Positions 6,330 through 57,437 are shown, numbered from the stretch's first letter. The stretch: DNA of 64,000 bases from Thermoprotei archaeon (GCA_003650925.1 QMSP01000003.1:19446-83445), one strand, 5' to 3'. Numbers and translations: made by a program. The notes: a model not told the origin generated them from the letters alone.

Positions 6330-6827
6330 TCAAGTAGACGATCTAGTCAAGGCTTCTATAATCGTTTTGCTTCCTCTTGGAGTGAAATAGGAGTCCGCTA
6401 ATTTGACTCTAAGCCCAGTATACTTCTCAAATATAGCCATAGCTATAACAGCACAGGGACATGTAACATCTCTCGGCTCAAGAAAGGGATGTACATGCTG
6501 CGCAAATACACAGTCATCGACAATAAGCTCTATACGATATCTACTTAATTTCCTAACATAAACTCTCTTAGCTACACCAGTTGACAGTAATAATGAGGTA
6601 AGATTAGCCAAAGCATCATCTAGATCTTTGCCCTTTAAGAGACCTAATCTTCGCTTTTCATCTATCTGACGTATAAGGTCAAGCGTAGGATGTATGAAAA
6701 TGCTGGCTCCTGTTCCTAACATCCGTCTTACAGCTCTTTGATAGGCAAACAGTATAGCGTGAACAAAGAGCACTACATCATATATATCACTTGACCCCTT
6801 CTGAACTTGACTCATTATGATCACCAA
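6330..6827 (-). CDS. V4R (4-vinyl reductase-like) domain protein.
   Basis: About 165 aa with a C-terminal Cys pair region (DVTCPCAVIAMAIFEKYTG) characteristic of V4R small-molecule-binding domains. Confidence 0.45.
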   Translation of the reverse strand: MVIIMSQVQKGSSDIYDVVLFVHAILFAYQRAVRRMLGTGASIFIHPTLDLIRQIDEKRRLGLLKGKDLDDALANLTSLLLSTGVAKRVYVRKLSRYRIELIVDDCVFAQHVHPFLEPRDVTCPCAVIAMAIFEKYTGLRVKLADSYFTPRGSKTIIEALTRSST

Positions 6828-6889: not shown

Positions 6890-8671
6890 CTATAGGACAT
6901 CAAGAGGTTCTATTTTAAGCATCTTTATAAATAAATCTGTGTATTCACTTTCAAGGTGTAGATTTAGGTGCCTTACTCTCTTAATGAGCGCCTTCATAAG
7001 CTCTCTAGCTTTACTTGATAATAGGAAAAGCTCACAGCCCATGAGAGAGCCATTGCCAATGAAGGTTACCTTACTTGGATCAACCCTGGGTATAAGGCCT
7101 ATATCTATGGCATTTTCAGGGTCCATGTAAGTACCAAAAGCTCCTGCAACATACAATACTTCAAGGTCCTCCGCGCTGACCTTAGCCTTCCTCATCAATA
7201 GCTCACAAGCAGCTCTAATAGCCGCTTTTGCAAGCTGAAGCTTCCTTATATCACTTTGCCTAAGCAAAATATCATGACCAGTTCCGCTCACGCTCCCTCG
7301 AATCACTACGAAGCACTTTTCTCCATCAATAAACTCTACGCCTGGTAGCTCGCTCTTAATAACACCTCTGGAGTCAATGATCCCTAGTCTTCTAAGTGAA
7401 GCCAGGAGGTCTATAAGAGCTGACCCGCACAAGCCTCTAGGAGGTATGTTCCCTATGGTAAAGTACCTTAACTGCCCTTCTTCAATCCATAATCTCTCTA
7501 TAGCTCCTTCTTCAGCTCTCATGCCACAGCTTATACCTACACCTTCAAATGCAGGACCTGCAGCACATGAGGTTACATAAAGCTTCTCTCCCTTCTTAAG
7601 CACAAGCTCACCATTAGTACCAAGGTCTATGAGTAGAGCGCATTTCCTCTCCATAATGCCCGAAGCTATGATATCTGCTGCTACATCTCCTCCCACATAT
7701 CCTCCTAGAATGGGCATTAAGTATGAGTAGGCCTCTTCATGCGCGATTATACCCAGCCTCCTGGCCTTGACTACATAGGGACCTATGATGGGCGAGTTAA
7801 AGGGAGCTACTCCTAAGCTTGTAGGCGAGACTCCTAACATTATAAGAGACATCACAGTATTTCCTGCCATAGCTACTGCCTTTATATCCCTGGGAGCTAA
7901 ATTCTTGATCTCAAGAAGAGAGCGTATAAGGTTATTAACAGTATCAACAAGCAAAGCTCTTAGCTCAATAAGTCCTCTATCTCCTTTTCTCATAATGTAC
8001 TCTATCCTGGATATGACATCTTCGCCCACTCTTAATTGCTTATTGTAGGCAGACAACACAGCCTCTCTTGTACCCTTCCTGATGTCTAGCAGAGAAGCCA
8101 CTACCGTAGTAGTGCCCAGGTCTACTGATATAGCGTATATCGCACCCTTATCCTCCTCAACATCTATGGCCTCTCTGGCCTCCAAGTCCATTACCATGTC
8201 CACCTCTCTGCAGTTCTCCCTAAGGAGCGATATCTTTCGCAGAGAGGAAAGGGATACTGTTGCATTCTTTAGGTCAGCATTGAGCTGACCAAGATCATGA
8301 AGCATTAGAGAGGCTGAGGAGATTTTGACTCTTACATGCCTTATTATAGGGTCTAGAGGCATGTCTACTCTAAAGCCCCACTCCAAGATCTTGGCCCTCA
8401 GGGGAAGGATCTCAATGACTGCATCATCGAGTACTCTTGTTTGGCATGCAAGTCTCCAGCCCATAGAAAGAAGTCCACCAAGTCTCTTCCTCTCTATGGG
8501 TGTGACCTCGCTTAAGGTGCCCTGAACTACTTTTACAAGACACTTACCGCAGAGACCCTTTCCACCACAGGGAGCAGGTAAGGGTATGCCATGTCTATGT
8601 AGTGAATCAAGAAGTCTCTCTCCCCTACGAACTCTCAAGACTAGTCCTTTAGGAAGAATCTTCAATTTCAC
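6890..8671 (-). CDS. 2Fe-2S ferredoxin fused to an ASKHA-fold ATPase (RACo-like, COG3894 family).
   Basis: N-terminal plant-type ferredoxin cysteine pattern (PCGGKGLCGKC…ACQ). ASKHA phosphate motifs DLGTTTV and IDLGTNGELVL. The 593-aa length matches reductive activators of corrinoid proteins. Confidence 0.65.
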   Translation of the reverse strand: MKLKILPKGLVLRVRRGERLLDSLHRHGIPLPAPCGGKGLCGKCLVKVVQGTLSEVTPIERKRLGGLLSMGWRLACQTRVLDDAVIEILPLRAKILEWGFRVDMPLDPIIRHVRVKISSASLMLHDLGQLNADLKNATVSLSSLRKISLLRENCREVDMVMDLEAREAIDVEEDKGAIYAISVDLGTTTVVASLLDIRKGTREAVLSAYNKQLRVGEDVISRIEYIMRKGDRGLIELRALLVDTVNNLIRSLLEIKNLAPRDIKAVAMAGNTVMSLIMLGVSPTSLGVAPFNSPIIGPYVVKARRLGIIAHEEAYSYLMPILGGYVGGDVAADIIASGIMERKCALLIDLGTNGELVLKKGEKLYVTSCAAGPAFEGVGISCGMRAEEGAIERLWIEEGQLRYFTIGNIPPRGLCGSALIDLLASLRRLGIIDSRGVIKSELPGVEFIDGEKCFVVIRGSVSGTGHDILLRQSDIRKLQLAKAAIRAACELLMRKAKVSAEDLEVLYVAGAFGTYMDPENAIDIGLIPRVDPSKVTFIGNGSLMGCELFLLSSKARELMKALIKRVRHLNLHLESEYTDLFIKMLKIEPLDVL

Positions 8672-16075: not shown

Positions 16076-16843
16076 ATGTCAGGTGTCTGGATAAAGTATT
16101 TAAGAGTAGGGCACGCTAGACGCTTTATCGGTGGTCTTGTGGAGAGGTTCAAGAGATTCGTGAAAAGAGTGAGGGAGGAAGCTCAAATTCCTCTTGTGGT
16201 TAAATGCCTTGGAGAGAGAGTTGCTGATTGGCAATCTGCTGGTGGATTCATACTCATAAAGCCTAGAGCAGCAAGCTTTGACTTCATCCTCTATAGGAGG
16301 GAGCCCATACCTCTTAGCTTAGACTTCAAGGATAGATTCATATGTCAGATAACTATAGTATCTGAGGAAAGCATGAATGAGAAATACGTACCAGTATATC
16401 AGAGGATGAAGACTATGGAGTGTGAACTGGTTTGGAAAGGACTTATAGGTAGAAAGCCCACCTTCAAAGCTTCGAAAAGCCTTGAAGCTCTCTCAAGGCG
16501 AATAGAGGGACTTGCCTTCAACCCCATGTTGGCAAAGGCCATAGCGTCAGATGAAAGTATAATTCATCTTATTAGCAGGATCAAGCCAGGTGAGTTGTCA
16601 ATTCAATTGAAGTCAATGAGTGATGTTGATGCCTACTTCGCTGTAACCCCTGAGATGACCTACGCCATACAGGCGACCTACTTCAAGGAGCCCAAGGATA
16701 TAGTGTGGTATGTCAACCTGACCACTATGCTTACAAGAGGGCCTTCATATGCGAGAAAGGTCAATGAAGTATATGATCTCCTCGAGAATATAGCCCGTAT
16801 TGTCAGGAAGATCGCTGAGAATATAAGGCACAGTGAAGCTTAA
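16076..16843 (+). CDS. Hypothetical protein.
   Basis: A 255-aa ORF with no motif I can assign. It is tightly spaced with flanking genes. Confidence 0.35.
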   Translation: MSGVWIKYLRVGHARRFIGGLVERFKRFVKRVREEAQIPLVVKCLGERVADWQSAGGFILIKPRAASFDFILYRREPIPLSLDFKDRFICQITIVSEESMNEKYVPVYQRMKTMECELVWKGLIGRKPTFKASKSLEALSRRIEGLAFNPMLAKAIASDESIIHLISRIKPGELSIQLKSMSDVDAYFAVTPEMTYAIQATYFKEPKDIVWYVNLTTMLTRGPSYARKVNEVYDLLENIARIVRKIAENIRHSEA

Positions 16844-16862
16844 ATAAGCCCCTCTCATAAAG

Positions 16863-17309
16863 ATGGTAGGACTGTTGGAGTCCATAGGAGATGATAGCTT
16901 GTACGAGAGTATCCGCTACAAGAGACCTCGAGGAGCCTGTGTATTTGAACTAAATGAAAGTCTCCAAGATGCAAAAATAACCTTAAGGCTAGCTGGCATC
17001 GACCTCATAAGAGTTAGAAAGCTGAGAAGCCTCAGTGACTATACACCTACCTCTAGAGCTTTTCGTGAGCTTGAAGATGAACTGATAGGAGAGGGTGAAT
17101 ATGAAGTATATGAAGGGTTTGGATTCTATGATGATACTCCCCTAACCCTAAGATTCTATTGTGATTATGAGACCCGGAAAGTGAGATATCTAGCAATACT
17201 TGCATATAGGCCGCGGGTCATGAGGAGGCTCAGAAGGAAGCTTGAGGAGCTGGGATGGAGGAGGAGATTTCTATTTGAGATAGAGGCTAGAGTTAGAAGG
17301 CCTACATGA
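16863..17309 (+). CDS. Hypothetical protein.
   Basis: A 148-aa ORF with an Arg-rich C-terminus. It is convergent with and overlaps the 3' end of the Csa3-like gene by 8 bp. Confidence 0.3.
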   Translation: MVGLLESIGDDSLYESIRYKRPRGACVFELNESLQDAKITLRLAGIDLIRVRKLRSLSDYTPTSRAFRELEDELIGEGEYEVYEGFGFYDDTPLTLRFYCDYETRKVRYLAILAYRPRVMRRLRRKLEELGWRRRFLFEIEARVRRPT

Positions 17310-18117
17310 CCTCCTCACTCAGCCTTCTTACCGCCTCCTCCCTTTTGAGTATAGCTTCTCTATACTTTGCAAGAGCAAGAGCTAAAGCTTTACCAAAGCC
17401 TGTAAGCATTATCGGCTTTGTCCTTGAGCCGAGCTCACACATAACTAGCCCCTTCTTGATCAGCTTATTCACCAGCCTACTATATCTGTTCTTAATCACA
17501 GGGTCGAGAGGATCATCTCCACATAGCTCAATAAGCTTCTTAATTGATGGAGCTCTGCCTCCATGTCTTACAAGAGTTACCAGAATATGCTCCTCCTCAG
17601 GTGATGGATGCTCAAGCCTATAGCCAGGTAGGAAGATCTCAAGAGGCTCAAGCCCTCTAACATTCCTCGCCTTCTCAAACCACTCTTCAAACTCAGGCGT
17701 GCCAGGGGAGGGAATGTACCATCCCCTTCTATCAGGAGGTACTACGTAGACATGAACCCCAGGAAACATTAACGAAACTGTCACTATGGCTCCATATGCT
17801 TCCTTAGTCGTAGAGGTAGCATCGATGTAGACTTCCCTCCTATGCTCAAGAACTTCTCTTCTCAAGATCCTGTATAGTGTGGAAAAGACATCAACATAGC
17901 TCTGAGGATTGACACCAACTCTTACAGGTCTCTTAAAAGCGAACGTCAAAGCTCTTAACAACTCCTTAGTATTTCTTCGAGAAGCATAACCGTAGACATC
18001 ACGCTTCTTATCGTATACAAGGTATATCTTCTCTATGGGCATCTTCTCATGCCAGTGCCTAATCCCATCTATGATCCTCTGAAAATCATAGCCTACGAAA
18101 CATATGAGCACTGTCAT
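17302..18117 (-). CDS. Csa3-like regulator: N-terminal CARF-like Rossmann domain plus C-terminal winged HTH.
   Basis: N-terminus VLICFVGYDFQRIIDGI parallels Csa3 YFVTMGFNETFLLRLL. The D-x-T-x-x-K segment DATSTTKEAYGAIVTV parallels Csa3 DLTMGMRMIN. The C-terminal MarR-like wHTH is …HILVTLVRHGGRAPSIKKLIELCGDD…. Confidence 0.4.
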   Translation of the reverse strand: MTVLICFVGYDFQRIIDGIRHWHEKMPIEKIYLVYDKKRDVYGYASRRNTKELLRALTFAFKRPVRVGVNPQSYVDVFSTLYRILRREVLEHRREVYIDATSTTKEAYGAIVTVSLMFPGVHVYVVPPDRRGWYIPSPGTPEFEEWFEKARNVRGLEPLEIFLPGYRLEHPSPEEEHILVTLVRHGGRAPSIKKLIELCGDDPLDPVIKNRYSRLVNKLIKKGLVMCELGSRTKPIMLTGFGKALALALAKYREAILKREEAVRRLSEEVM

Positions 18118-18175
18118 CGTAGCACCATCTTGCTACAGAATAACTTCGGAAGAGATAGTTATAAACATTATGTTA

Positions 18176-18273
18176 TTGTATCCATGCTATGGTTACTGTA
18201 ACGACTATTCATATCCATAGGCTCATGAAATTAGTCTCATTAAAAATGTACTGTAACCATTCCATGGATACAA
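18176..18273. promoter_or_regulatory. 27-bp imperfect inverted repeat pair in the divergent promoter region between the Csa3-like regulator and nurA.
   Basis: Left arm 18176-18202 TTGTATCCATGCTATGGTTACTGTAAC. The reverse complement of the right arm 18247-18273 is TTGTATCCATGGAATGGTTACAGTACA. They match at 22 of 27 positions across about 45 bp of spacer. Confidence 0.45.
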
Positions 18274-18369
18274 TCTCGATGCAATGCAACTATATATGAC
18301 CATGAGTGACAAAGGCAAGGTTTAAGCCTTAAGATACGTAACTTCACTGGAGTTAAGAGAGGGCTTTAC

Positions 18370-19302
18370 ATGATAATTGAAGCGCGTCAACTAATGGAGG
18401 ATATTGAACGTGCGATCAAGACTTTAAGCGTCACAAGACAGCATAGCAGCTTTACACAGCCGTTCGTACCGCTTTTTAAGTTAAGGAGGAAAAGCATAGA
18501 GGGAGAAGAGGTCTTCATTGATTCCTTCAGACCTCTGAGAAGGATAAGGCACAATAAGACAGTAGCAGCAGTCGACTCCTCTCTTAAACTGATCATGGAT
18601 TTAGGAGCCTTCAAGATCTACCTAGTAAAGATAGCAGGAGCGGTGTTCAGAGGCGCTATACATGAGAAGTCAACGATCATGCTGAGGCTAGGGCTTGTCA
18701 CCTCAAGGGAAGAAGCTCTCAGGCTCATGATGAAGTATGAAAGACAAGTGGCAGCTGAGCTACTTGAGGAGAACGCCCCTTCGTACCTAATGTTGGATGG
18801 TAGCCTAAACCCCATAGTTGAGGGATTGAAAGAGGACAGCCTTATCAGGTTGCTAGAGAAGGCGGAGGAGTATGGATGTAGAGTTCTGGCCTTTGCGAAA
18901 TCGTCAAGGATTGTATACGATGATGTGCCTATATCGCTAATATTAGACTTCATGGCCAGGCATCTAGGGCTGAGCTCTTGGATATGCTACCCACTTCTAC
19001 ATAGAGGACGCCTAACCGTAGCTATGGTCAAGCTATCCCCGGATAGTAGGAGGATATTCAGACTTGATATATGGGGATTAGGCGACGTACTAACAATAGC
19101 CTCTGAGATAGCCTATCTGCAGGATGATGCTCTTCCAGGATATCCATATCCTCTTGTTAGAGCTCATAGGGACTCAAGGATAGAGAAGGCTGAGGCGGAG
19201 TATGTGAGGTGCATCTTAGAGGAGAAGATATCGCTGAGGGATCTAGACACAGTCTCCTTCAGGAGGAATGAGCTTGAAGGTTGGAGTCGTGGTGTGGGCT
19301 GA
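18370..19302 (+). CDS. nurA: NurA-family 5'-3' nuclease.
   Basis: NurA motif I (KTVAAVDSSLK) and the second Asp motif (YLMLDGSL). There is a 35-bp overlap with the downstream HerA gene, as in canonical nurA-herA pairs. Confidence 0.65.
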   Translation: MIIEARQLMEDIERAIKTLSVTRQHSSFTQPFVPLFKLRRKSIEGEEVFIDSFRPLRRIRHNKTVAAVDSSLKLIMDLGAFKIYLVKIAGAVFRGAIHEKSTIMLRLGLVTSREEALRLMMKYERQVAAELLEENAPSYLMLDGSLNPIVEGLKEDSLIRLLEKAEEYGCRVLAFAKSSRIVYDDVPISLILDFMARHLGLSSWICYPLLHRGRLTVAMVKLSPDSRRIFRLDIWGLGDVLTIASEIAYLQDDALPGYPYPLVRAHRDSRIEKAEAEYVRCILEEKISLRDLDTVSFRRNELEGWSRGVG

Positions 19303-20899
19303 GGGAACTACGGTGAAGTTCAGAATACTCGAAGACGTGACAGTTGAAAGAGGCGACATCCTGAAGGTTGAGGGTCATGCTGTGAAGCACATAATAAAGG
19401 TGGTAGACTTCAAGCCTGAGACCTTGCTCACGCCCATCGAGATCGCGAGGTTATCTCTTAAGAAGGCTAGAGGAGAGGAAGTGGAGCTTTATGATGGACC
19501 TCTGAGATATTACGACACAGCCATAGCCACCATAGTGGCCGAGATAACCAGAGATGGAGACGTTAGAAGACCTACATCGGTTCCCAAGCTTTTTACTGAT
19601 GTATACACACTTGAAGAGGATGAGATAGAGGAGCTTAACCTAGATACAGGGGACATAGAGTTAGGCTTCGTGAGGATGGGCAGCAAGGTCACTACATGCA
19701 GGGTCAGCATCTCGGGCGCTAAGGCCTTTCCTCATCACATGTTAATATGCTCCATAACCGGTGGTGGTAAGACTAACTTGGGGAAAGTCATAGCATGGAA
19801 TATAATGAGGCTTAGAGATAGACGATATTCGATGGTCATAGTGGATACCGAGGGAGAGTACTTTGATGGGGGTGATTCTCATCACCTAGGCCTAGTTCAT
19901 TCTCCTAGTAGCGAGGAAGGGCTCTTCTTCGTAAGCTATAGGGTCAAGGACAAGGGCAGGATAACGTATAGGTTTAGATACAATGGAGCTCTCATAGAAA
20001 GGAGAATAAGGGCCTGTCCCCTCAGGATATCCATATCATCCCTACATCCTGATGACTTCATAGAGACAGGAGAGTTCACGCCTCCTCAGGAGTCTTTGTT
20101 ATGGCTCTTGTGGAGAGAGCATGGAGATGAGTGGCTAGATATACTCTTGAGAAGGCCTATAGACTCCATATATGCCTCGCTTGGAAGGAGAGTGATGAAG
20201 AGTACTATAGCTGTTACGAAGAGAAAGGTTCACATGATGATAGGGGATGATGGAATCTTCATAGAAGAGGATGACTATGATGTCCTGGGTGACATACTAG
20301 AGGCTGTCTTAAAGGGGATGGTTGTTCTCCTGGACATGCCAGGTGCAAGTGATGCACAGGAGAGGCTACTCACAGTAATAGTAACAAGGAGGATCTTTAG
20401 GAAGTATGAGGTTGAGAGAAGGATAAATCCCTCTAGATGGAGACGCTATCCGACTGTGATAATAGTTATTGAAGAGGCTCATAGGTATTTCTCAAAGGCT
20501 GTTCTCATGAAGCATGGCGAGAGAAGGGATAATATATTCACCACAATAAGCAAGAGAGGTAGGAAGTATAGAGTAGGACTATGCTGTATAACTCAAATGC
20601 CTGGAGAGCTTGAGGAGACCATAATAAGGCAGCAATTGACGAAAATCGTGCTACCTCTTCCAACAAAGCCTGACTACTCTAAGGTGGTCAATTACACGCC
20701 ATATCTAGAGGGTGCAGAGGAGGAGATTAAGAATCTTGAGCGAGGTGAAGCTCTCCTGATATCTCCTCCATCTGGCATAAAGTTTGCGGTTCCTTTGAAG
20801 ATTCATCAATTTGAAGACCTTGTCTATGAGGAGCTCGAAGAGGAAGTCCTGAAGTCTAAAGTGATAAGTCAAGATAGGCGATTGAAGTCTTCCTATTAA
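19268..20899 (+). CDS. herA: HerA-family (FtsK/VirB4-like, DUF87) hexameric ATPase/helicase.
   Basis: N-terminal HAS-barrel-like region, a P-loop SITGGGKTNLGK and the HerA-typical Walker B/catalytic IIVIEEAHRYF. The 543-aa length fits. Confidence 0.7.
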   Translation: MSLKVGVVVWAEGTTVKFRILEDVTVERGDILKVEGHAVKHIIKVVDFKPETLLTPIEIARLSLKKARGEEVELYDGPLRYYDTAIATIVAEITRDGDVRRPTSVPKLFTDVYTLEEDEIEELNLDTGDIELGFVRMGSKVTTCRVSISGAKAFPHHMLICSITGGGKTNLGKVIAWNIMRLRDRRYSMVIVDTEGEYFDGGDSHHLGLVHSPSSEEGLFFVSYRVKDKGRITYRFRYNGALIERRIRACPLRISISSLHPDDFIETGEFTPPQESLLWLLWREHGDEWLDILLRRPIDSIYASLGRRVMKSTIAVTKRKVHMMIGDDGIFIEEDDYDVLGDILEAVLKGMVVLLDMPGASDAQERLLTVIVTRRIFRKYEVERRINPSRWRRYPTVIIVIEEAHRYFSKAVLMKHGERRDNIFTTISKRGRKYRVGLCCITQMPGELEETIIRQQLTKIVLPLPTKPDYSKVVNYTPYLEGAEEEIKNLERGEALLISPPSGIKFAVPLKIHQFEDLVYEELEEEVLKSKVISQDRRLKSSY

Positions 20900-20931: not shown

Positions 20932-21432
20932 ATGGGGAGAGACATGAGCATAAAGCTAGAGATAGTCAAAGTAGAGGTTCCTGAGGGCTGTAATGTTATA
21001 ATGGGTCAATCTCATTTTATCAAGACAGTCGAAGACCTGTACGAAGCTATGGTAAATGCTGTTCCAGAGGTCAAATTTGGACTTGCCTTCTGCGAAGCCT
21101 CAGGGCCTAGACTTGTTAGATATGATGGCAATGATGAGGAGCTCATTAAGAGAGCAGTAGACACAGCTCTTAAAGTAGCTGCTGGCCACTTCTTCGTGAT
21201 CTTCCTAAGGGGTGCATATCCAATAAATGTTCTCGACAGGATAAAAGCAACTCCAGAGGTGTTGACCATATTTTGCGCCACAGCAAATCCTGTCCAGGTC
21301 ATAGTAGCTGAAACTGATCAAGGCAGAGCAGTACTTGGCGTTGTTGATGGCTTCAAATCAGCTGGAGTTGAGTCAGAGAAGGATATTGAGGAGAGAAAGA
21401 GTTTCCTCAGGAAGATAGGATATAAGAGGTGA
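20932..21432 (+). CDS. Small conserved archaeal protein, possibly the adenosine-specific-kinase-like family (PF04008-like).
   Basis: A 166-aa soluble protein. The family assignment is from memory of sequence style only, so it is weak. Confidence 0.3.
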
Positions 21433-49510: not shown

Positions 49511-49756
49511 TTATTCTCCACTAGACTTCTCAGCCCATGGAGGTCCTCCTCCACCTCTCCCTCTGCCTCTTCCCCAGCCTCTTCTTCCACGCCCCCTATC
49601 CACTCTATGTATCATATGGTGTGGAGCTCCGCATCTAGGACATTGAAGAGGTTTAGGCATGCCATAGGGCACCTCTATGATATTGCCACATGCCATGCAT
49701 TGAAAGCGTTTCATTGGAGGCTTTACCTCACTAGTCATTGAATACCCCCTCCACAA
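49511..49756 (-). CDS. Zinc-ribbon mini-protein with an RGG/RG-rich tail.
   Basis: CMACGN…CPRCG zinc ribbon followed by RGRGRRGWGRGRGRGGGGPPW. The true start is probably the internal Met (MKRFQC) at about 49714. Confidence 0.45.
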   Translation of the reverse strand: MWRGYSMTSEVKPPMKRFQCMACGNIIEVPYGMPKPLQCPRCGAPHHMIHRVDRGRGRRGWGRGRGRGGGGPPWAEKSSGE

Positions 49757-50630
49757 GCCTGGCTAAAGAGTTTATGACTCTATAGAAAGGTCTCTTCTCA
49801 TCCATGAGCTTGTTTAGATCTCCAGAGCTGTAAGCTGTGTGTACCACCTCATCATAGGGAACCATAGTCAAGGTGTACACGAAAGGTAACCCCTTAGCAA
49901 TTTCCCATACCTCCCTTATAAAGCTCTCCCAACCATCAAACTCTCCAACCTTATTGACTACGATAATACATTGCCTCTTAAACCTCTTATTTAGGTCTAG
50001 TACAAGTTTCAGATCATGAATTCCCATGGGAGTAGGCTCGGTGATTACAAGAACTATATTACTGATATTAAGAACCTCCGATATTATAGAACCTGCTCCC
50101 GGAGGACAGTCCACTAGAAGTATTTTGTTCTTGACATTATCTTTAACATAATCTATTAGAAGATGGGCTACTAAAGGACTTCTCTCATCTCCAGGAACTA
50201 TTTCGCCTCCTATAACAACAAGATCCTTAAGCTTGCCCCTCCATATATATCCCATGATTCGGTAGTCCTCCTTAACGGCATCATGGGGGCATACTATTTT
50301 GCATATGGTACATCCATTACATAATTCAGCTATGAGACTAGGCGGTCTTCCTGGAGGGGCTACAAGAGCATTCTCAGGACAATTCCTTACACATATACTG
50401 CATCCAGTACACTTCCTAGTATCTATTGAAGGAATAAAAGCTTTTAACTCCTTGACAATCTCCACTTGCTCCATGAAGACCTTAGACGAAGGATTATCAA
50501 CATCAGCATCGATATACACAACATCATGTTTCATCTTAGCCAAAAGATAGGCTATGCTAAGAGCTATAGTAGTCTTCCCTGTGCCTCCTTTGCCGCCTAG
50601 GACTCCTATAACCTGTACATTAGAGTGCAC
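49731..50630 (-). CDS. MinD/ParA-superfamily P-loop ATPase with an inserted 2x[4Fe-4S] ferredoxin domain (COG1149-like).
   Basis: Deviant Walker A GGKGGTGKTT. Two CxxCxxCxxxCP motifs (CTGCSICVRNCP, CNGCTICKIVCP). Confidence 0.7.
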   Translation of the reverse strand: MHSNVQVIGVLGGKGGTGKTTIALSIAYLLAKMKHDVVYIDADVDNPSSKVFMEQVEIVKELKAFIPSIDTRKCTGCSICVRNCPENALVAPPGRPPSLIAELCNGCTICKIVCPHDAVKEDYRIMGYIWRGKLKDLVVIGGEIVPGDERSPLVAHLLIDYVKDNVKNKILLVDCPPGAGSIISEVLNISNIVLVITEPTPMGIHDLKLVLDLNKRFKRQCIIVVNKVGEFDGWESFIREVWEIAKGLPFVYTLTMVPYDEVVHTAYSSGDLNKLMDEKRPFYRVINSLARLVEGVFND

Positions 50631-51495
50631 TTTCGATCACCTCCCTGAAGAGCTTGACTAGGGCTCTTGAAGCAGGACTCTCAGGGTATTTGACTATGAC
50701 TGGCTTGCCCATGACATAGGCTCTATAAACATGTTCATCATATGGTATCATGCCCTCCACTTTAATACCTCTCCTATGAAGTAGGTCAAGAATTCTCTTC
50801 ATGATTTCCTCCTTGTACTTATTCAAGATGACCAAATAGGGCACCTTGAAGTGTTCCAAGACCTTAATTACTCTTTCGCATCCCTGAAGTGATGCAAGAG
50901 AAGGCTCTAGCACTACTATGCCTAGGTCGGCTCCGGATATGGCAGCTATAGTAGGGCAGCCTATGCCAGGGGCTGAATCTATCACTATAACACCATCCTT
51001 CTTCGCAAGACCCTCAGCCATTTCCTTAGCCCTATAGACAAGCTTACCAGTATGCCTCATGCCAAGGGCTAAGTTTCCACTTATTAGAGGAAAACCATAA
51101 TCAGTCTCCATTATCCTAAGCTTACCTGGCTCTACATCCTTTAGGACTATAGCCTCTCTAGGACATACAAGACTACAAGCACCGCATCCTTCACATAGAT
51201 AATCTATAACCATGGGTTTACCTTCTATGAGCTCAATAGCTTTAAATTGACATGTAGCAATACACGCTAGGCAATCTATACACTTATCCCTATCTATGAA
51301 GGCTCTTTTAGCCCCCCTTTCAACATATTCCCTAACAACCCTCCCTCCTAAGACAAGATGAAGATTAGGAGCCTCAAGATCAGCATCAAGAGCTATAACA
51401 TTAAAACCATTCTCATGTAAATAAATAGAAAAATTTGAAGATATTAGAGTCTTTCCAACCCCTCCTTTGCCGCTTACCACCACTATTTGCTTCAA
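50620..51495 (-). CDS. MinD/ParA-superfamily P-loop ATPase with an inserted ferredoxin domain (paralog of the downstream gene).
   Basis: GKGGVGKT Walker A. Ferredoxin motifs CIDCLACIATCQ and CEGCGACSLVCP. An 11-bp overlap with the paralog. Confidence 0.7.
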   Translation of the reverse strand: MKQIVVVSGKGGVGKTLISSNFSIYLHENGFNVIALDADLEAPNLHLVLGGRVVREYVERGAKRAFIDRDKCIDCLACIATCQFKAIELIEGKPMVIDYLCEGCGACSLVCPREAIVLKDVEPGKLRIMETDYGFPLISGNLALGMRHTGKLVYRAKEMAEGLAKKDGVIVIDSAPGIGCPTIAAISGADLGIVVLEPSLASLQGCERVIKVLEHFKVPYLVILNKYKEEIMKRILDLLHRRGIKVEGMIPYDEHVYRAYVMGKPVIVKYPESPASRALVKLFREVIESAL

Positions 51496-51865: not shown

Positions 51866-52192
51866 TTAAGGTGGCGCCCTACTTTTCCTCCTTTCCTCAA
51901 TAATGCGCCTCAGCTCCTTTATTGCCTCTTCAACACTTCTAAGCTCCTCTTCTAGCTCTCTCTTATACTGCTCAAGCATGGAAAGTTCTTCCTCAGGGCT
52001 TGGTGGTGGAGGTGGTGGCATGTAGTACATTGGTGGTGGATAGTAAGCCGCATAGGCAGGATATGCTTGTTGAGATGGTTGTTGAGTCTGCTGGGCTTGT
52101 GGAGCACTTGAGGGAGCCGATACTGGAGGTGGCGGAGGAGGAGGCATGTAGTACATTAGTCTTCTCCACCACCAGTACCACATACTTTTCAC
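51866..52192 (-). CDS. Pro/Tyr/Trp-rich low-complexity protein with a C-terminal coiled coil.
   Basis: MKSMWYWWWRRLMYYMPPPPPPP…MYYMPPPPPPSPEEELSMLEQYKRELEEELRSVEEAIKELRRIIEERRK. The 12-nt direct repeat CATGTAGTACAT (52019-52030 and 52145-52156) encodes the repeated MYYM. Confidence 0.4.
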   Translation of the reverse strand: MKSMWYWWWRRLMYYMPPPPPPPVSAPSSAPQAQQTQQPSQQAYPAYAAYYPPPMYYMPPPPPPSPEEELSMLEQYKRELEEELRSVEEAIKELRRIIEERRKSRAPP

Positions 52193-52200
52193 CTTTTCAC

Positions 52201-52398
52201 CTAGGCTGGTGGCTTGAAAGCAGTTTCAAAAGCCTTTCTCCAAGCCTCTATAGCTGTTCTGAAGACATCAATGAAGAGCCACCAGTAGTACGTTGCCATG
52301 AGCAGACTGAATAGGTCATACATTAGTGGATATGGCATCAGGTACCAGTATGGTGAATATGGCAGAGGAGGAACATAATAATAGATGTATGGATTCAT
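52201..52398 (-). CDS. Tyr/Pro-rich mini-protein with a hydrophobic C-terminal half.
   Basis: MNPYIYYYVPPLPYSPYWYLMPYPLMYDLFSLLMATYYWWLFIDVF…. It is in the same frame as the upstream Trp-rich ORF, separated only by TGA plus 3 codons. Confidence 0.3.
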   Translation of the reverse strand: MNPYIYYYVPPLPYSPYWYLMPYPLMYDLFSLLMATYYWWLFIDVFRTAIEAWRKAFETAFKPPA

Positions 52399-52407
52399 GT
52401 TATCACC

Positions 52408-52677
52408 TCACCATGGCCTTATTGGGTACCATGGCATTATGTACCATGGATATGACCATGTTCCCCATGGCCACCAGTAGTACATTGGGTAGTATCCATA
52501 GTAGCCTAGCCATGGATACATCCATGGACCAAAGAGCCACCAGCAAGCTCCTCTTCCGAACAACCACCCTGGTCTAAGCCATGGTGGAAGCCAGCTAAAT
52601 GGTCCTCTTCCTGGCCATGGGCTGATCCATCCCCATCCTCTCCCGCCTCTCCATCCCCATCCCATTCCGATCACCAC
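52408..52677 (-). CDS. Extremely Trp/Gly/Pro-rich mini-protein.
   Basis: …GWGWRGGRGWGWISPWPGRGPFSWLPPWLRPGW…PWMYPWLGYYGYYPMYYWWPWGTWSYPWYIMPWYPIRPW. The coding DNA is a CCATGG cluster, so either strand could in principle be the real one. The minus strand is chosen for operon context. Confidence 0.3.
   Translation of the reverse strand: MVIGMGWGWRGGRGWGWISPWPGRGPFSWLPPWLRPGWLFGRGACWWLFGPWMYPWLGYYGYYPMYYWWPWGTWSYPWYIMPWYPIRPW
52411..52620. repeat. Cluster of eight CCATGG hexamers in 210 bp.
   Basis: CCATGG counted at 52411, 52429, 52444, 52465, 52510, 52522, 52579 and 52615, often as TACCATGG or GCCATGG. This is far above random expectation for a 6-mer. Confidence 0.5.
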
Positions 52678-52772: not shown

Positions 52773-55700
52773 CTAGGAGTGCAGTGCTTTCTCCGCTCTT
52801 TCTATGTACTTAGCCTGCTCTTTTGATGGGAGAGATCTCCACAGTAATAGCTGCTTCCTTATGCTATCGATGAAGTAGTAGTTTGATGAAACCCATATTG
52901 ACCTAGCGCCAGAGATCCTCCTTAGGTGTAGACTGAAGGCGTAGCGCTTCTCTTCGGGCAGTAGGCTTGCTGAGATCGCCACCTCCTGATTCACCTGCAT
53001 CTCATAGGGAGCCAAGCCTACTATTAGCAGTAGAGCATTCTTATCATACTGTATGCCCTTCAGCTCCCTGACCATGAAGGTCCTGGTCTCTCTGCCCTCT
53101 CCCTCAAAGTACTCCCTTAGGTATTCAATTACTCCTAGGGCCTCTTTTCTCGAGGGAACTCTTAGTGGTAGAGGTATGTCCCACTCATCCCCTCTTGGCT
53201 TAGTTGGTGGCTTCCATCTTCTCTCAAGTGAGGGAGTGACCATCTTAGCGGCTATTGAAGCTGGATAGGCTGCTGAGGTTAAGGTTGCAAGTATGATACA
53301 GGCTATGGCTACTAGTACGAAGAGGGAGGAGTAGTTGAGGACGAAGTATCCAGGAAGTAGGCCTGTGCTTATGAAGACTAGGTTTGTATAGAAGCCTATG
53401 ATGTAGCCGACGAGTGCTCCTAGGATAGCGTAGACCAGGGTTTCTGATACGAACATCGAGGCCACTCCTATGGGCGAAAGCCCTAGGCTGCTATAGGTGA
53501 AGATCTCCCTAACCCTTTCTTTGACTGCACCAAGCATGGTTACAACTATGTTAGCAATGCCTATAGCTAGGATTACGCTCACTAGGTTCCAGCCTAGGAG
53601 AAGGAATACGGTGATCCTGGACAGCTTATGAACAACCCCTTCCCATCCCATGAACACCTCAACGTCGAGGCACATGGCAGCATCCCATGCCATTTTATGA
53701 AGAACCTCCTTTGCAAGGTCTCTGTTGGCCTCTATGACTTCAGGCTTTAGTCTTATGGCTACATTAGCTACATATCCTCCCAGGTCCAGCGCTAATCTCC
53801 ATGGTACTATAAGGACTGAGCTCCAAGAGAGCGTCGTAGGTGCAGGGACCTGTGGGGGAGCGACAAACCTACATAGAGGCTGTACAGTTATGGGATCAAC
53901 AGGTGTTATGGCTCTATTGTCAAGGTCAACTACACTGCCAAGTATAGAGCCATCAAAGATACCCATGACCTTGAGCTTTATACCTGCCCACTCTATGACA
54001 TCTCCTATGGTTACATTTAGCTTCTCAGCTACATATTTCTCGAGTATGCATGCATAGTAGTCATCCTCTCTGAATCCCTCACCTATTAGCACGTCCTTGA
54101 ATATTATCTTGACCTCCTCCGCACGCATTCCAAGAAGAGCTCTTACAGCATAGATATTCTCACCATGTCTAAGTATGGCCTTAGGGCCTTCTGATGGCAG
54201 CTCAGTCTCTGGATAGTACCAAACTCTTGGGCATACTATAGCGTAGTCTCCAGCTAAACCTTCAGCGTACTCTATCAAGTGATGGTCAAATATATCATAG
54301 GGCACACAGTATTGCCTCTTCAAGAAGACTCCTGCGTATACAGCCTCCTCGGGAGGAGCTGCAGCCTTGGGAACAGCAACTCTCTTGACCGTAGTGTAGT
54401 AGGAGGCTGATGTTATCGAAGTGAGGCCTATAGCTATGGCTATGATAGTAGCTAATACAAGGGTTGTTCTAAGCTTCCTCTTCCTCATGTTCTCAACTGC
54501 TACCGAGAAGGCTAACATCATTATGCCTACAGTGCCTGTCTCAGGCTTGTGCAGGCCCTTGAGCTTTAGAGCTACCTCCTTCATTATCCTATTGACCTCA
54601 TCGAACAGTATGGCCAGTGTTATTATGAAGAAGACCTCTAGTAGGATACCCATGAAGCCCATGAAAGCATTGCTTATGATGCTTAGCCCTGGGTGCATGT
54701 TGTAGAATATGAATACAAGCACTATGGAGAGTGCTATGGTGACAAGCAGTCTTCTACGTCCTTCACTATGGAACAATAGACGCTCGAAGAAGAAGACAAA
54801 GGGTATCATGAGAGCGAAGAATGCTATTGTGGTGTTGGCTGTATCATTGATCAGGCTCATGACTTCCTCATAAGCTCTCACTGACCATGTCCATGCTAGA
54901 TAGGCCTCTCTATAGGCCTTGTCATATTCCATATTTCTATAGTATTCCTCAGCTAGTTCAAGGTGCCTCTTGGCCTCCTTGAGCACTTCCTCAGCGCTAA
55001 GGCTTCTGACAAGCTTTGAAGCTAGTGTATTATACCTATGTCTTGCTACGGTATACATGTCGTACGCATATCGATAGGCAGTGAAGGGTATGCTATAGGA
55101 CCTTATCTTATAGCCCAGCTCTATTCCACTTCCCTCGGGATATTCATCACTAGCGTTTACTACGAAGGCCACAGTTCTAGGCAGGCCAGGGCCTGCACTC
55201 ATAACAACGAAGGACCTAGTTCTTGGAAGGAGGAACACCATAGCTACTTCTTCATTTTGACTATACATGGTTCCATACCATATGTATATGCTTCGACTCT
55301 CGAAGTCATATGGAGTTATGATGAAGGACTCCAGTAGGAACTCCTCAGCATTCAGTCTAGGGTCTGGGATGTATATTCGTCTCATCAGCTTAGGGTCTAT
55401 GACGTCGTAGAGCGTTATGGTACATGCAGGCATTACTACAGTAGCAGCTTCAGCTGTCCCTCCTAGAAGCCATAGCTTGAAGTTCACAAACTTTATACCA
55501 TACTGACCATAGTCAGGAGCGTATATTATCTCTCCTGTATTCTCATCAACAACCCATGCATCTACATACCAGCCAATTCCTCTAGGAACTTCGGCAGGCA
55601 GGACAGGTGCCCAACCAGCATCTATGGAAGGTGTTGGACATAGGCCATGCACTATGAAGTCTCCATTCTCATCAGCATAGACGATGATCTGAGAGAATGG

Positions 55701-57437
55701 ATATGTTGATGCAAGCCATACTCTAACAAGAGCTCTTGGGATCTTGGAGAACCAGCCTTTGCTTATGTTGTATGTCCAGACAATACCTTTAAGAGTAACG
55801 AAGCCAGCACTCCACACCTGATAGCTGCCCACTTGGAACCACTGGAATCTCCTTGGCTTTATCAAGCTCCAGTCCAGCCCTAGCTTGGGTTCATATATCA
55901 CACAACACAGCACTGGCAGAGCCTGTATAACTAGCTTCTTTAGATTTTCCATGTTCACATAGGCACGGTCATCAAGAGGAGTATTCCAGTGCACTCTATA
56001 GGCATGTGCTGTCCTAAGGGTTATTGAAGGTAGTCCTGCCACAGCCAGAGGCTCGCTATCTATCATGTAGGGTGATGGGCTTCTTCCCCACCAGCCATAT
56101 TGAGTTATGAAGTCCTTGGTGCCCATTATTATGCTCACGCCGTACAAGGACTTGGCAACTTGCTCAACTGCATAGATCCATCTGCTATAGAGCCTCCTCA
56201 GTGGCTCCCATCTAGTGACCACGTATTGGCCTTCCCAATGTATAGCGTAACGATAGAAACAGCCTGCATGGAGTATGTCAAGTTCGTCAGAGTCCGTTGA
56301 GAAGTCCAGGTTGATCTGAGTCCAGACCTTATAGTTCTCCTTTTGTATCAAGTCATCGAATAGCACATATTCAACGAATTCCCTAGGACCAGCCAAGGCT
56401 TCCCAATGCCCTGAGAAGGCTACAAACATAAGGCTTCTTGGCGGTGGATTCTCAGAGAAGTATCGAGCAAGCTCAAGGAGAACAGCTATACTGGTTGCTT
56501 CATCAACTCCTCTCGAGAACGCTAGAACAGGGCTCCAGCTATCATAGTGAGCACTTATAATTATTATTTCATCAGGTGTCTCAGTGCCCTTGATCAGGCC
56601 TATGACATTGTAGGCTTCAACCTCTCTATAGAAGACTCTGGAAACTACTCTGACCTCAACCTTACCATGCTCCTTAAGCAGCTTGAGAAGCTGAGCTCCT
56701 ACGTCTGAGGTTACATATACTCGAGGAGTATATAGCGGAGTTATCAGGATCTTAGCCAGAGAGTCGAGCCTTGTAGCGTGTGGAGTCTCCATGAATATAA
56801 CTGCTTTGGCTCCAAGCTTGAAGGCATTAAGCCACTTTCTTCCACAATCATACCTAAGCATCACTATAGCTCCTTCAATACGTTTGCCATTGAAATCCTC
56901 TAGGTCTCCATCATCAGCGTAAACCAATGTTCCTCTAAGCCCTTCTGGTGGTGTTGGAGAAGTCTGTATTGAATTAGGCCACATTGAATAGGCCTTTAAC
57001 CTCATTCTCACAGGGCTTATTACTTCTATGTAACACTCCTCTTCGACAGGAGCTACCACCTTATACTTCTGGAAGTACCCATCTAGTCTCTCAAGCAGTC
57101 TCTCGGATTTGAAGCCGAATTCCTTAGGCGTTATTAATCCATATTCCTCAAACTTCTCAGCGATGTATTCGGCAACCTCCCTAAGGCCAGGCTGACCTGG
57201 TATTCTACTGCCAGCCTTCTCTATTACGGAGAGGTGCTCAGCCACTCTATCATAGTCTATACTCTTCACGACCTTCTCATATATTGACCTTATCTCCTCC
57301 TCGGGTACTTGACCATAGTTCCCCCTGATGCTAACCGATGTCACCAAGGATGTCATTGCAATAGATGAAATGAGCATTATAGCCAATAGTAGGATGAGCA
57401 TACGGTCTTTGACTCTAAGACTCTTAACGTCAAGCAT
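52773..57437 (-). CDS. Giant (1554 aa) membrane fusion protein: signal/TM, M28-peptidase-like plus PA ectodomain, polytopic middle region, and a C-terminal MacB/FtsX-type permease module.
   Basis: N-terminal TM (LILLLAIMLISSIAM). M28-like HxD and Asp motifs (IISAHYDSW, GVDEATSIAVLLEL, FSGHWE). A MacB-like N-terminal helix …VENMRKRKLRTTLVLATIIAIAIGLTS…, a large extracytoplasmic segment and a C-terminal FtsX three-TM bundle (…LLLGWNLVSVILAIGIANIVVTMLGAVKERVREIFTYSSLGLSPIGVASMFVSETLVYAILGALVGYIIG…). No ABC ATPase lies nearby. Confidence 0.65.
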   Translation of the reverse strand: MLDVKSLRVKDRMLILLLAIMLISSIAMTSLVTSVSIRGNYGQVPEEEIRSIYEKVVKSIDYDRVAEHLSVIEKAGSRIPGQPGLREVAEYIAEKFEEYGLITPKEFGFKSERLLERLDGYFQKYKVVAPVEEECYIEVISPVRMRLKAYSMWPNSIQTSPTPPEGLRGTLVYADDGDLEDFNGKRIEGAIVMLRYDCGRKWLNAFKLGAKAVIFMETPHATRLDSLAKILITPLYTPRVYVTSDVGAQLLKLLKEHGKVEVRVVSRVFYREVEAYNVIGLIKGTETPDEIIIISAHYDSWSPVLAFSRGVDEATSIAVLLELARYFSENPPPRSLMFVAFSGHWEALAGPREFVEYVLFDDLIQKENYKVWTQINLDFSTDSDELDILHAGCFYRYAIHWEGQYVVTRWEPLRRLYSRWIYAVEQVAKSLYGVSIIMGTKDFITQYGWWGRSPSPYMIDSEPLAVAGLPSITLRTAHAYRVHWNTPLDDRAYVNMENLKKLVIQALPVLCCVIYEPKLGLDWSLIKPRRFQWFQVGSYQVWSAGFVTLKGIVWTYNISKGWFSKIPRALVRVWLASTYPFSQIIVYADENGDFIVHGLCPTPSIDAGWAPVLPAEVPRGIGWYVDAWVVDENTGEIIYAPDYGQYGIKFVNFKLWLLGGTAEAATVVMPACTITLYDVIDPKLMRRIYIPDPRLNAEEFLLESFIITPYDFESRSIYIWYGTMYSQNEEVAMVFLLPRTRSFVVMSAGPGLPRTVAFVVNASDEYPEGSGIELGYKIRSYSIPFTAYRYAYDMYTVARHRYNTLASKLVRSLSAEEVLKEAKRHLELAEEYYRNMEYDKAYREAYLAWTWSVRAYEEVMSLINDTANTTIAFFALMIPFVFFFERLLFHSEGRRRLLVTIALSIVLVFIFYNMHPGLSIISNAFMGFMGILLEVFFIITLAILFDEVNRIMKEVALKLKGLHKPETGTVGIMMLAFSVAVENMRKRKLRTTLVLATIIAIAIGLTSITSASYYTTVKRVAVPKAAAPPEEAVYAGVFLKRQYCVPYDIFDHHLIEYAEGLAGDYAIVCPRVWYYPETELPSEGPKAILRHGENIYAVRALLGMRAEEVKIIFKDVLIGEGFREDDYYACILEKYVAEKLNVTIGDVIEWAGIKLKVMGIFDGSILGSVVDLDNRAITPVDPITVQPLCRFVAPPQVPAPTTLSWSSVLIVPWRLALDLGGYVANVAIRLKPEVIEANRDLAKEVLHKMAWDAAMCLDVEVFMGWEGVVHKLSRITVFLLLGWNLVSVILAIGIANIVVTMLGAVKERVREIFTYSSLGLSPIGVASMFVSETLVYAILGALVGYIIGFYTNLVFISTGLLPGYFVLNYSSLFVLVAIACIILATLTSAAYPASIAAKMVTPSLERRWKPPTKPRGDEWDIPLPLRVPSRKEALGVIEYLREYFEGEGRETRTFMVRELKGIQYDKNALLLIVGLAPYEMQVNQEVAISASLLPEEKRYAFSLHLRRISGARSIWVSSNYYFIDSIRKQLLLWRSLPSKEQAKYIERAEKALHS

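Follow-up and report, generated by a model that had tools for sequence, protein, structure and literature searches.

A conserved divergent unit of a DUF6293-family regulator and a non-canonical NurA-HerA pair in archaea

CARF sensors are known mainly as receivers of the second messengers of type III CRISPR systems, and HerA-NurA machines mainly as the resection partners of Mre11-Rad50 or, in other pairings, as anti-phage modules. This report concerns a locus at which the two meet: in a 64,000-nucleotide stretch of DNA (hereafter the window) from a 'Thermoprotei archaeon' metagenome-assembled genome (MAG; GCA_003650925.1, QMSP01000003.1:19446-83445; locus tag DRN15_01835), a gene for a regulator with a CARF-like domain and a winged helix-turn-helix is transcribed divergently from overlapping nurA and herA genes. 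Several published systems resemble this arrangement in part. In Sulfolobus islandicus, Csa3a activates nurA-mre11-rad50-herA and an orphan nurA-herA operon through direct binding to their promoters (Liu et al. 2017, PMC5587795), and over-expression of Csa3b also raises the Sulfolobus nurA-herA operon genes (PMC7480081). Pyrobaculum and its relatives carry at least three nurA-herA pairs, one of which forms a CRISPR-adjacent nurA-csm6(CARF)-herA cluster (PMC3396285) that was later listed as Cas HerA/NurA (PMC3973734, PMC6546367). In Haloferax mediterranei, over-expression of the Csa3-like regulator HFX_2341 leads to gene repression (Turgeman-Grott et al. 2024, PMC11434293). Finally, the HerA protein Tpen_1571 of Thermofilum pendens has been grouped with the mre11-rad50-linked APE_0107 (PMC5448004).

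The likeness to Csa3a lies in the placement of a CARF and winged-helix factor at nurA-herA promoters, which for Csa3a include that of the orphan pair SiRe_0094/0095 (PMC5587795). However, Csa3a is encoded within a type I-A cas/CRISPR locus and works in trans at many promoters, whereas the present regulator belongs to the DUF6293 family and appears dedicated in cis to a single nurA-herA pair, with no cas genes or CRISPR arrays beside it in the window or in 116 related loci. With the Pyrobaculum cluster the locus shares the physical coupling of a CARF gene to a non-canonical nurA-herA paralog pair in Thermoproteota. In Pyrobaculum, however, the CARF gene is of the csm6/APE2256 type, lacks a winged helix-turn-helix and separates nurA from herA in a cluster that adjoins CRISPR arrays and type III/I cas genes, whereas here the CARF protein carries a winged helix-turn-helix, is encoded divergently and has no array near it in the 116 loci, and NurA has no match in PADLOC. 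HFX_2341 resembles the present regulator in its PF19810 and PF22665 domains, in being Csa3-like by structure prediction, and in its chromosomal, vertically inherited position away from CRISPR. In light of these published relatives (PMC5587795, PMC3396285, PMC11434293), the statement of the original prediction that such a module was not described as such is too strong; we found no description of the divergent DUF6293-nurA-herA unit or of its operator, in a literature whose key comparative works were covered in part.

Our preferred reading, to which we assign a probability of about 60%, is that the trio is a self-contained chromosomal unit in which a signal controls a NurA-HerA paralog lying outside the mre11-rad50 operon. 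The pair would be a distinct and vertically inherited paralog rather than the mre11-rad50-linked resection pair, and the trio would be carried by Thermofilum, Methanomethylicia/Culexmicrobium, some Nezhaarchaeota and the 'Thermoprotei' MAG of the window. The evidence for this reading begins with linkage. Viewed from HerA, in all 59 metagenome loci whose upstream sequence reaches 1589 bp or more, nurA lies directly upstream together with the divergent regulator gene, and the 21 metagenome herA loci without a regulator match all stop less than 1310 bp upstream. The trio is also present in T. pendens Hrk5 (CP000505) and on two further contigs, and two 2.4-Mb contigs from the Joint Genome Institute share its gene order. 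Viewed from the regulator, the trio occurs in half of the genome loci (11 of 22; Methanomethylicia, Culexmicrobium and one 'Thermoprotei') and in 11 of the 15 regulator loci with at least about 2.9 kb upstream, which leaves room for nurA and part of herA. The Nezhaarchaeales and Bathyarchaeia regulator loci with sufficient flanking sequence lack nurA-herA. When neighbors were clustered, nurA and herA were the only genes widely common to regulator loci. The regulator family can therefore occur alone, while this HerA-NurA subfamily was never seen without the regulator at an informative locus.

A second line of evidence comes from the 252-bp intergenic region that separates the divergent genes. 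The original prediction had named 27-bp inverted repeats; the repeat is real and lies in this region, although its arms measure 26 nt and each is itself a palindromic dyad of the form GTAAC-N8/9-GTTAC, so that the two arms read as inverted copies of one another. The exact pattern GTAWC-N9-GWTAC occurs twice in the 64 kb (at 18178 and 18253), in both cases within the intergenic region, against an expectation of 0.17 from shuffled sequence, and only one of 100 shuffles of the window reached two occurrences. A scan that allowed one mismatch was not significant for the window alone (4 dyads found vs 4.7 expected), and within the window only the exact pattern and the clustering of the dyads are informative. 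Across loci the operator was evaluated by a mismatch scan, an unbiased count of 5-mer dyads and a broad degenerate pattern. In 47 non-identical intergenic regions between nurA and the regulator, GTAAC with a gap of 8 ranks first of all 5-mer dyads, the runners-up being its register shifts and a GTTGC variant. The degenerate dyad was found 70 times in 16.6 kb of intergenic sequence (4.22 per kb) vs 17 occurrences in the other 408 kb of these loci (0.042 per kb), an enrichment of about 100-fold in the shared promoter region; at least one dyad is present in 37 of the 47 loci and at least two in 26. The dyads keep conserved distances from the regulator ATG, at about 90 and 136 bp or at 63 and 202 bp, and about 10 related loci also carry one 9-13 bp from that ATG. 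Regulator genes that do not adjoin nurA-herA have no such dyad upstream. A degenerate operator-like dyad at 52501-52519 of the window (GTAGCCTAGCCATGGATAC) is probably a chance occurrence.

Together, the 59/59 linkage and the shared, enriched operator indicate that the coupling of regulator and nurA-herA is conserved and not accidental, in line with the divergent arrangement originally proposed for a CARF-type regulator. The same two results rule out both chance adjacency and a global regulator unrelated to nurA-herA. As to mechanism, the DUF6293 transcription factor, presumably a dimer, would bind the GTAAC-N8/9-GTTAC dyads of the divergent promoter region at four predicted sites: at the regulator start codon, 12 nt upstream of the regulator TATA box, centrally, and over the likely nurA transcription start, which the site termed O3 probably overlaps judging from the sequence. 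A distance of 12 nt separates the putative operator O1 from the putative TATA box, and this spacing recalls the Csa3a palindrome TCCC-N8-GGGA located 12 bp upstream of BRE/TATA (PMC8699464). Occupancy of the sites would give autoregulation of the regulator and tight control, most likely repression, of the nurA-herA operon. A small ligand held by the CARF-like loop crown may then alter DNA binding and release nurA-herA expression, a cyclic oligoadenylate being one candidate ligand only. NurA and HerA would form the usual hexameric translocase-nuclease machine, which threads and degrades linear DNA ends, most likely in signal-gated end processing during repair or replication stress or, alternatively, in the destruction of foreign linear DNA.

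The assignment of the regulator is based on both sequence profiles and structural models. It matches Pfam PF19810 (HFX_2341_N) with 31.6 bits against a cut-off of 30, and the winged-helix model PF22665 (DUF6293_C) at the expected residues 163-248 with a sub-threshold 23.2 bits (cut-off 27); the T. pendens homolog passes the latter with 30.6 bits. PADLOC models for CARF3/Csx1 CARF domains match the N-terminal 125-140 residues with E-values down to 5.7e-9, MarR-like PDB profiles match the winged helix weakly, and NCBIfam models gave no match to the regulator. The 69 regulator homologs (47-64% identity) come from Methanomethylicia, Nezhaarchaeales, Bathyarchaeia and 'Thermoprotei' MAGs, and several close ones carry the NCBI annotation 'DUF6293 family protein'; the profile search for more distant DUF6293 members retrieved only this close clade.

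An alignment of 27 homologs, mapped onto an AlphaFold (AF2) model of high confidence (pLDDT 91.8), outlines a conserved loop crown composed of VG9xD11..R14..D17G18, D36..D40, N70PQS73, D99xT101STxK105E106 and VPP..W133. Residues V8, G9, D11, R14, D17, G18, D36, D40, Q72, D99, T101, S102, T103, K105, E106, P127 and W133 are invariant and map in the model to the C-terminal ends of strands b1-b5, which in Rossmann-like and CARF domains form the ligand-binding site. The stretch D99-x-T-x-x-x-K105 conforms to the motif [DN]x[ST]xxx[RK] that follows strand b4 in CARF proteins. Both peptides on which the CARF assignment had originally been based were located in the protein, VLICFVGYDFQRIIDGI at residues 3-19 and DATSTTKEAYG at residues 99-109. 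When the model was compared with the PDB by Foldseek, the top matches were CARF proteins only: Csa3 (2wte, and 6wxq with cA4; probability 1.00, E 1.8e-8), Sso1393 (3qyf) and the ring nuclease Sis0811 (7pq2, TM about 0.49), with Cad1, Csm6 and Card1 behind them. The earlier description of a Csa3-like protein with CARF and winged-helix domains thus holds for the architecture, as modeled. By sequence, however, the protein is a member of the DUF6293/HFX_2341 family and not Csa3. On inspection, the regulator shows only a loose likeness to T-h-G-F-(N/D)-E-x4-R and L-x2-G-h-R, the published pocket motifs of Csa3 (PMC8699464): its b1-a1 stretch, C-F-V-G-Y-D-F-Q-R, keeps the G-aromatic-D element but lacks an E and spaces R differently, and no L-x2-G-h-R is apparent.

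The structural comparison also raises the question of whether the protein is chiefly a Crn1-type ring nuclease like Sso1393 and Sis0811, which would degrade cyclic oligoadenylate rather than act on transcription. Both proteins have the same length as the regulator and give the best TM-scores (0.48-0.50, vs 0.36 for Csa3). We nevertheless regard this explanation as very improbable: operators conserved in dozens of loci exactly between the regulator gene and nurA point to a DNA-binding regulator, no sequence-level match to ring nucleases of the Sso1393/Sis0811 type was found, and by inspection the b1-a1 loop (VGxD) has no conserved serine where PDB titles place the mutated Ser12 of Sis0811. The two roles are, moreover, not mutually exclusive.

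Among trio-linked regulators the putative pocket takes two conserved forms. The window type is marked by VG[HY]D[FY]QRIIDG, IDATSTTKEAYGA and RGWY and occurs in stand-alone regulator genes as well. The Thermofilum type is marked by VGFHPxLxLxG, IDxTDMPPxxxA and RGEF, is 33-48% identical, and in the comparison set (L030, L033 and L059-L115) was seen only beside nurA-herA. Since the pocket is not uniform in the family, ligand gating may be absent or different in part of it; for the window's own regulator ligand gating is plausible. A more specific version, which we offer tentatively and hold to be improbable as it stands, is a CRISPR-independent, ligand-gated switch for DNA degradation or repair in which the CARF sensor would read a nucleotide signal not made by Cas10 and then license its dedicated NurA-HerA. 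Candidate signals would be a nucleotide derived from damage or replication stress or a product of NurA itself, and the two pocket types (DATSTTKE and DxTDMPP) would then read different signals. If true, this would amount to a CARF signaling pathway outside CRISPR immunity, present in several archaeal classes and in a cultured organism.

Several observations weigh against the preferred reading of the trio as a signal-controlled unit. DUF6293 proteins also occur in haloarchaea, which lack HerA and NurA, as does Haloferax volcanii, which is closely related to H. mediterranei (PMC7776575), and DUF6293 regulators without nurA-herA are found in Nezhaarchaeales and Bathyarchaeia. HFX_2341 itself behaves as a global regulator in the one experimental study of the family that we found, which describes neither a binding site or operator nor linkage to a nuclease-ATPase pair (PMC11434293). 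The Thermofilum-type regulators (DxTDMPP) lack the basic residue of the CARF motif, and one locus with the gene order of the window (L052, on contig Ga0190363_1005584: orf255, orf148, regulator, nurA, herA and a PF04008 gene) encodes a HerA 57% identical to the window's, while its regulator reaches only 37% identity and the pocket is degenerate (LIDVTNTNVKVVSA). The metagenome loci come mostly from a few hydrothermal and hot-spring data sets. Additionally, the proposed direction of control, repression as opposed to activation, is read from the positions of the sites and from TATA boxes assigned by eye.

Both members of the enzyme pair look active, judging from intact catalytic motifs and a modeled HerA-like fold. 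NurA matches PF09376 with 48.4 bits (cut-off 21). An alignment of 13 sequences shows D69, E124, D143, K177, D252, G257-Y-P-x-P261 and H266 as invariant columns, and an alignment of 16 family members (25-36% identity) agrees with it at a threshold of at least 87%. We take D69, E124, D143 and H266 to be the catalytic positions. The NurA profile aligns to Sulfolobus NurA (2ygk) at GDYILMDGSL and GYPFPLLKAH. HerA, whose homologs are 44-60% identical, matches PF01935/DUF87 with 64.8 bits (cut-off 23.2); the Pfam scan found no match to the HAS-barrel model in it. In 31 aligned HerA sequences the invariant positions comprise T164, G165, G167, K168 and N170 of Walker A, E403-A-H and Y407 in the Walker B region, K429-R-G-R-K-Y434 and I441-T-Q-M-P445, with E402 present in at least 90%; a 15-sequence alignment displays the identical motifs TGGGKTN, EEAHRY, KRGRKY and ITQMP. 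Walker A, Walker B (EEAH) and the Arg-finger region are all recognizable. The best Foldseek match of the HerA model (AF2, pLDDT 89.6) is Sulfolobus HerA (Sso HerA, 4d2i; E 4e-26, target TM 0.74, 536 aligned columns including the N-terminal strands), followed by T. kodakarensis HerA-NurA, TdpA and anti-phage HerAs. The model has the N-terminal barrel and RecA-like core of solved HerA structures. The expected profile families for NurA and HerA, as well as the CARF models for the regulator, were thus recovered, while a Csa3 assignment by sequence was not.

The pair accordingly resembles canonical HerA-NurA (4d2i, 2ygk, T. kodakarensis 9x1m) in folds and catalytic motifs, and its overlapping genes imply a complex, as in the canonical case. 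The overlap is 35 bp with the longest herA open reading frame (ORF), as originally stated, and 29 bp with the public start two codons later. In other respects the pair stands apart from canonical HerA-NurA: it has no mre11-rad50 linkage, identity to the canonical proteins is at most 19% (19% for HerA and 4d2i), and its equivalog scores are far below the orthology cut-offs, reaching only about 8-10% of the canonical thresholds (HerA_Thermprot 66 vs 800 bits; helicase_HerA 55.5 vs 970; NurA_Sulf 40.8 vs 400). An exhaustive HMMER search placed the HerA subfamily in one cluster at 50% identity (718 bits), the next relatives scoring no more than 197 bits at about 30% identity. In two cluster look-ups, the named nearest relatives were 'ATP-binding proteins' of Nanoarchaeota, Woesearchaeota and Bathyarchaeota, and in 2 of 3 such loci profile comparison marks the overlapping ORF upstream as NurA-like (97.7% and 98.9% probability); the ORF upstream of the Woesearchaeota HerA is not detectably NurA. 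The NurA-like ORFs beside these relatives suggest that the pair is part of a broader archaeal clade of non-canonical NurA-HerA pairs. It forms a clade separate from the canonical one, with uncharacterized DPANN and Bathyarchaeota pairs as its nearest relatives.

These data also bear on a simpler possibility, that the pair is the only HerA-NurA resection pair of the organism, with mre11-rad50 elsewhere in a split operon and the DUF6293 protein serving as a DNA-damage regulator. The intact catalytic motifs, the Sulfolobus HerA as best structural match, a chromosomal and apparently vertically inherited position among housekeeping genes, and a sister pair in Bathyarchaeota (locus L036) beside cdc6/orc1 and the PolD small subunit are all compatible with such a role. 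We judge it quite unlikely, given the very low similarity (19% identity to 4d2i, and NCBIfam scores of 66 vs 800 and 41 vs 400) and the sharp separation of the subfamily from all other HerA. Furthermore, the trio-bearing T. pendens has Tpen_1571 too (PMC5448004), probably a different gene from the trio herA to judge by its coordinates, and it is usual for Thermoproteales (PMC3396285) and Sulfolobus (PMC5587795) genomes to hold more than one nurA-herA pair.

The genomic context was surveyed across the window and its relatives. Within the window, 49 of the 50 listed ORFs of at least 150 aa were covered by a Pfam scan or, through precomputed Pfam families, by the public gene table. No mre11, rad50 or cas gene was found among them; one ORF (6330-6827) had no family match, and for a 593-aa ORF (6890-8671) domains are on record for the first ~455 residues only, as it runs off the end of locus L001. 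Repeat scans found no tandem repeats or CRISPR-like arrays in the window, and neither Rfam matches nor tRNA genes were found there. The detachment of the pair from mre11-rad50 and the lack of CRISPR arrays and cas genes in the window are therefore as first proposed. The 116 related loci (1.08 Mb) likewise contain no CRISPR-like arrays, and the related loci with annotated neighborhoods show no cas families and no mre11 or rad50. No relatives of HerA or of the regulator were found on viral contigs in IMG/VR. The neighbors in the window are housekeeping genes, among them an aminoacyl-tRNA synthetase, an ABC transporter, a pyrimidine-biosynthesis cluster, sugar-nucleotide enzymes, an RsmB-type methyltransferase, PhoU and TatD. 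Taken together, this housekeeping context, the absence of viral relatives and the recurrent, old synteny fit vertical inheritance better than a mobile defense island. An association with CRISPR is ruled against by the lack of arrays in the window and the 116 loci and by the lack of an Rfam match, and carriage by viruses or mobile elements by the absence of IMG/VR relatives.

This context is central to the proposal of antiviral defense, in which a cyclic oligoadenylate of type III CRISPR origin would bind the CARF domain and the regulator would switch on NurA-HerA against invading linear DNA or for the production of spacer fragments. The proposal draws on the CARF and winged-helix fold shared with Csa3, a cA4 binder (PMC8699464), on the activation of S. 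islandicus nurA-herA operons by Csa3a (PMC5587795), and on the Pyrobaculum CARF genes that lie with nurA-herA beside CRISPR arrays (PMC3396285). HerA partners effectors in several anti-phage systems, which appear among the structural matches, a PADLOC model termed 'HerA Type III coevolved' gives a partial match of 77 bits to HerA (residues 326-474), and toxin-antitoxin genes surround the unit in T. pendens and in L033. A defense module of this kind is nonetheless not borne out by the loci examined, and we consider it unlikely. In addition to the missing arrays, cas families and viral relatives, and to housekeeping neighbors and old synteny, HerA is 45-60% identical even between classes, which speaks for vertical descent and against a mobile island. 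The PADLOC comparison, while returning CARF models for the regulator and partial HerA hits, gave none for NurA and covered only the C-terminal ATPase region of HerA. Scores against the anti-phage equivalogs are low (HerA_antiphage 56 bits vs a cut-off of 800; HerA_antiphage_2 50 vs 850), the basic residue of the CARF motif is missing from half of the regulators linked to the trio, and no homolog of the type III-associated cyclase was detected in haloarchaea that conserve DUF6293 (PMC11434293). The SIR2-HerA, DUF4297-HerA and TdpAB anti-phage systems share with the present pair a hexameric HerA-family ATPase plus effector, reflected in structural and weak PADLOC matches, but here the partner is NurA rather than SIR2, DUF4297 or TdpB, the matches are partial and low, and the system is archaeal, vertically inherited and equipped with a dedicated transcription factor.

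If the preferred reading of a signal-controlled NurA-HerA unit is correct, the trio offers a small and clean system for asking what CARF regulators outside CRISPR sense and what the extra NurA-HerA paralogs of archaea do. It suggests a concrete set of target genes for part of the DUF6293 family, it is present in the cultured organism T. pendens, and its predicted operator is defined to the base pair. The features of the locus are collected in Table 1; the coordinates given in the original prediction for the three ORFs were reproduced exactly.

Table 1. Genes, protein domains and predicted regulatory sites of the regulator-nurA-herA locus, in window coordinates
Feature	Position	Strand	Description
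Regulator gene	17302-18117	-	271-aa ORF; DUF6293/HFX_2341 family, CARF-like domain and winged helix-turn-helix
CARF-like Rossmann domain (residues 1-135)	17713-18117	-	Conserved loop crown in 27-homolog alignment; AlphaFold model
Winged helix-turn-helix (residues ~163-248), then long C-terminal helix	17374-17631	-	Pfam DUF6293_C; helices and wing strands in model
Dyad GTAGC-N8-GCTAC	18119-18136		Abuts regulator start codon, in regulator 5' leader; degenerate-pattern scan
Putative regulator TATA box, TTTATAA	18159-18165	-	42-48 nt upstream of ATG, 12 nt from O1; read by eye
Inverted repeat, two 26-nt arms	18175-18200 and 18249-18274		88% complementary
Predicted operator O1, GTATC-N9-GGTTAC	18178-18196		Exact match to GTAWC-N9-GWTAC
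Predicted operator O2, GTAAC-N9-GATAC	18253-18271		Exact dyad pattern and related loci
Possible nurA TATA box, TTTAAG	18321-18326		Assigned by eye
Operator-like O3, GTAAC-N9-GTTAA	18338-18356		One mismatch; ends 14 bp before nurA ATG
nurA paralog	18370-19302	+	310-aa ORF
herA paralog	19268-20899	+	543-aa longest ORF; 541 aa from 19274 in public gene calls

Two ORFs of 255 and 148 aa at 16076-17309 (+) have no significant family match; the 148-aa ORF runs toward the regulator gene and shares 8 bp with its 3' end, and only L023 and L052, the closest relatives, retain the two ORFs. Past herA, on the same strand and starting 33 bp after its stop codon, lies a gene of the PF04008 'adenosine-specific kinase' family (20932-21432), an arrangement that the nearest relatives alone retain (L023, L037, L052-L054 and L116). 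After nurA and herA, the next most frequent neighbor of regulator genes encodes a 269-308-aa DUF7347/HTH_20 protein (L004 7076-7885, L017, L018, L021, L011 and L013), which lies directly upstream of stand-alone Nezhaarchaeales regulators and, in two trio loci of Methanomethylicia, just past herA. In T. pendens and Nezhaarchaeales the regulator has a CN-hydrolase/NAD-synthase pair as a neighbor, and the sister nurA-herA pair of Bathyarchaeota adjoins one too; NAD synthase, often with CN-hydrolase, was recorded in three classes (L004, L017, L018, L020 and L021 of Nezhaarchaeales, L030 of T. pendens and L036 of Bathyarchaeota). The same sister pair adjoins a 233-aa MarR-like gene, which is not a DUF6293 homolog.

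Elsewhere in the window, three consecutive small ORFs of 108, 65 and 89 aa (51866-52677, -) have an extremely high content of Pro, Trp, Tyr, Met and Gly (GWGWRGGRGWGWISPWPG...YPWLGYYGYYPMYYWWPWGTWSYPWY being one example); a 115-aa ORF and a 1554-aa ORF flank them, and the operator-like dyad noted above falls inside them. The 1554-aa ORF (52773-57437, -) combines PA, M28-peptidase, MacB-like periplasmic and FtsX permease domains and is situated next to a 689-aa DUF6785/DUF6784 protein (57494-59563, -). Finally, two tandem MinD/ParA-type P-loop ATPases, each with an inserted 4Fe-4S ferredoxin domain, are encoded at 49731-51495 (-).

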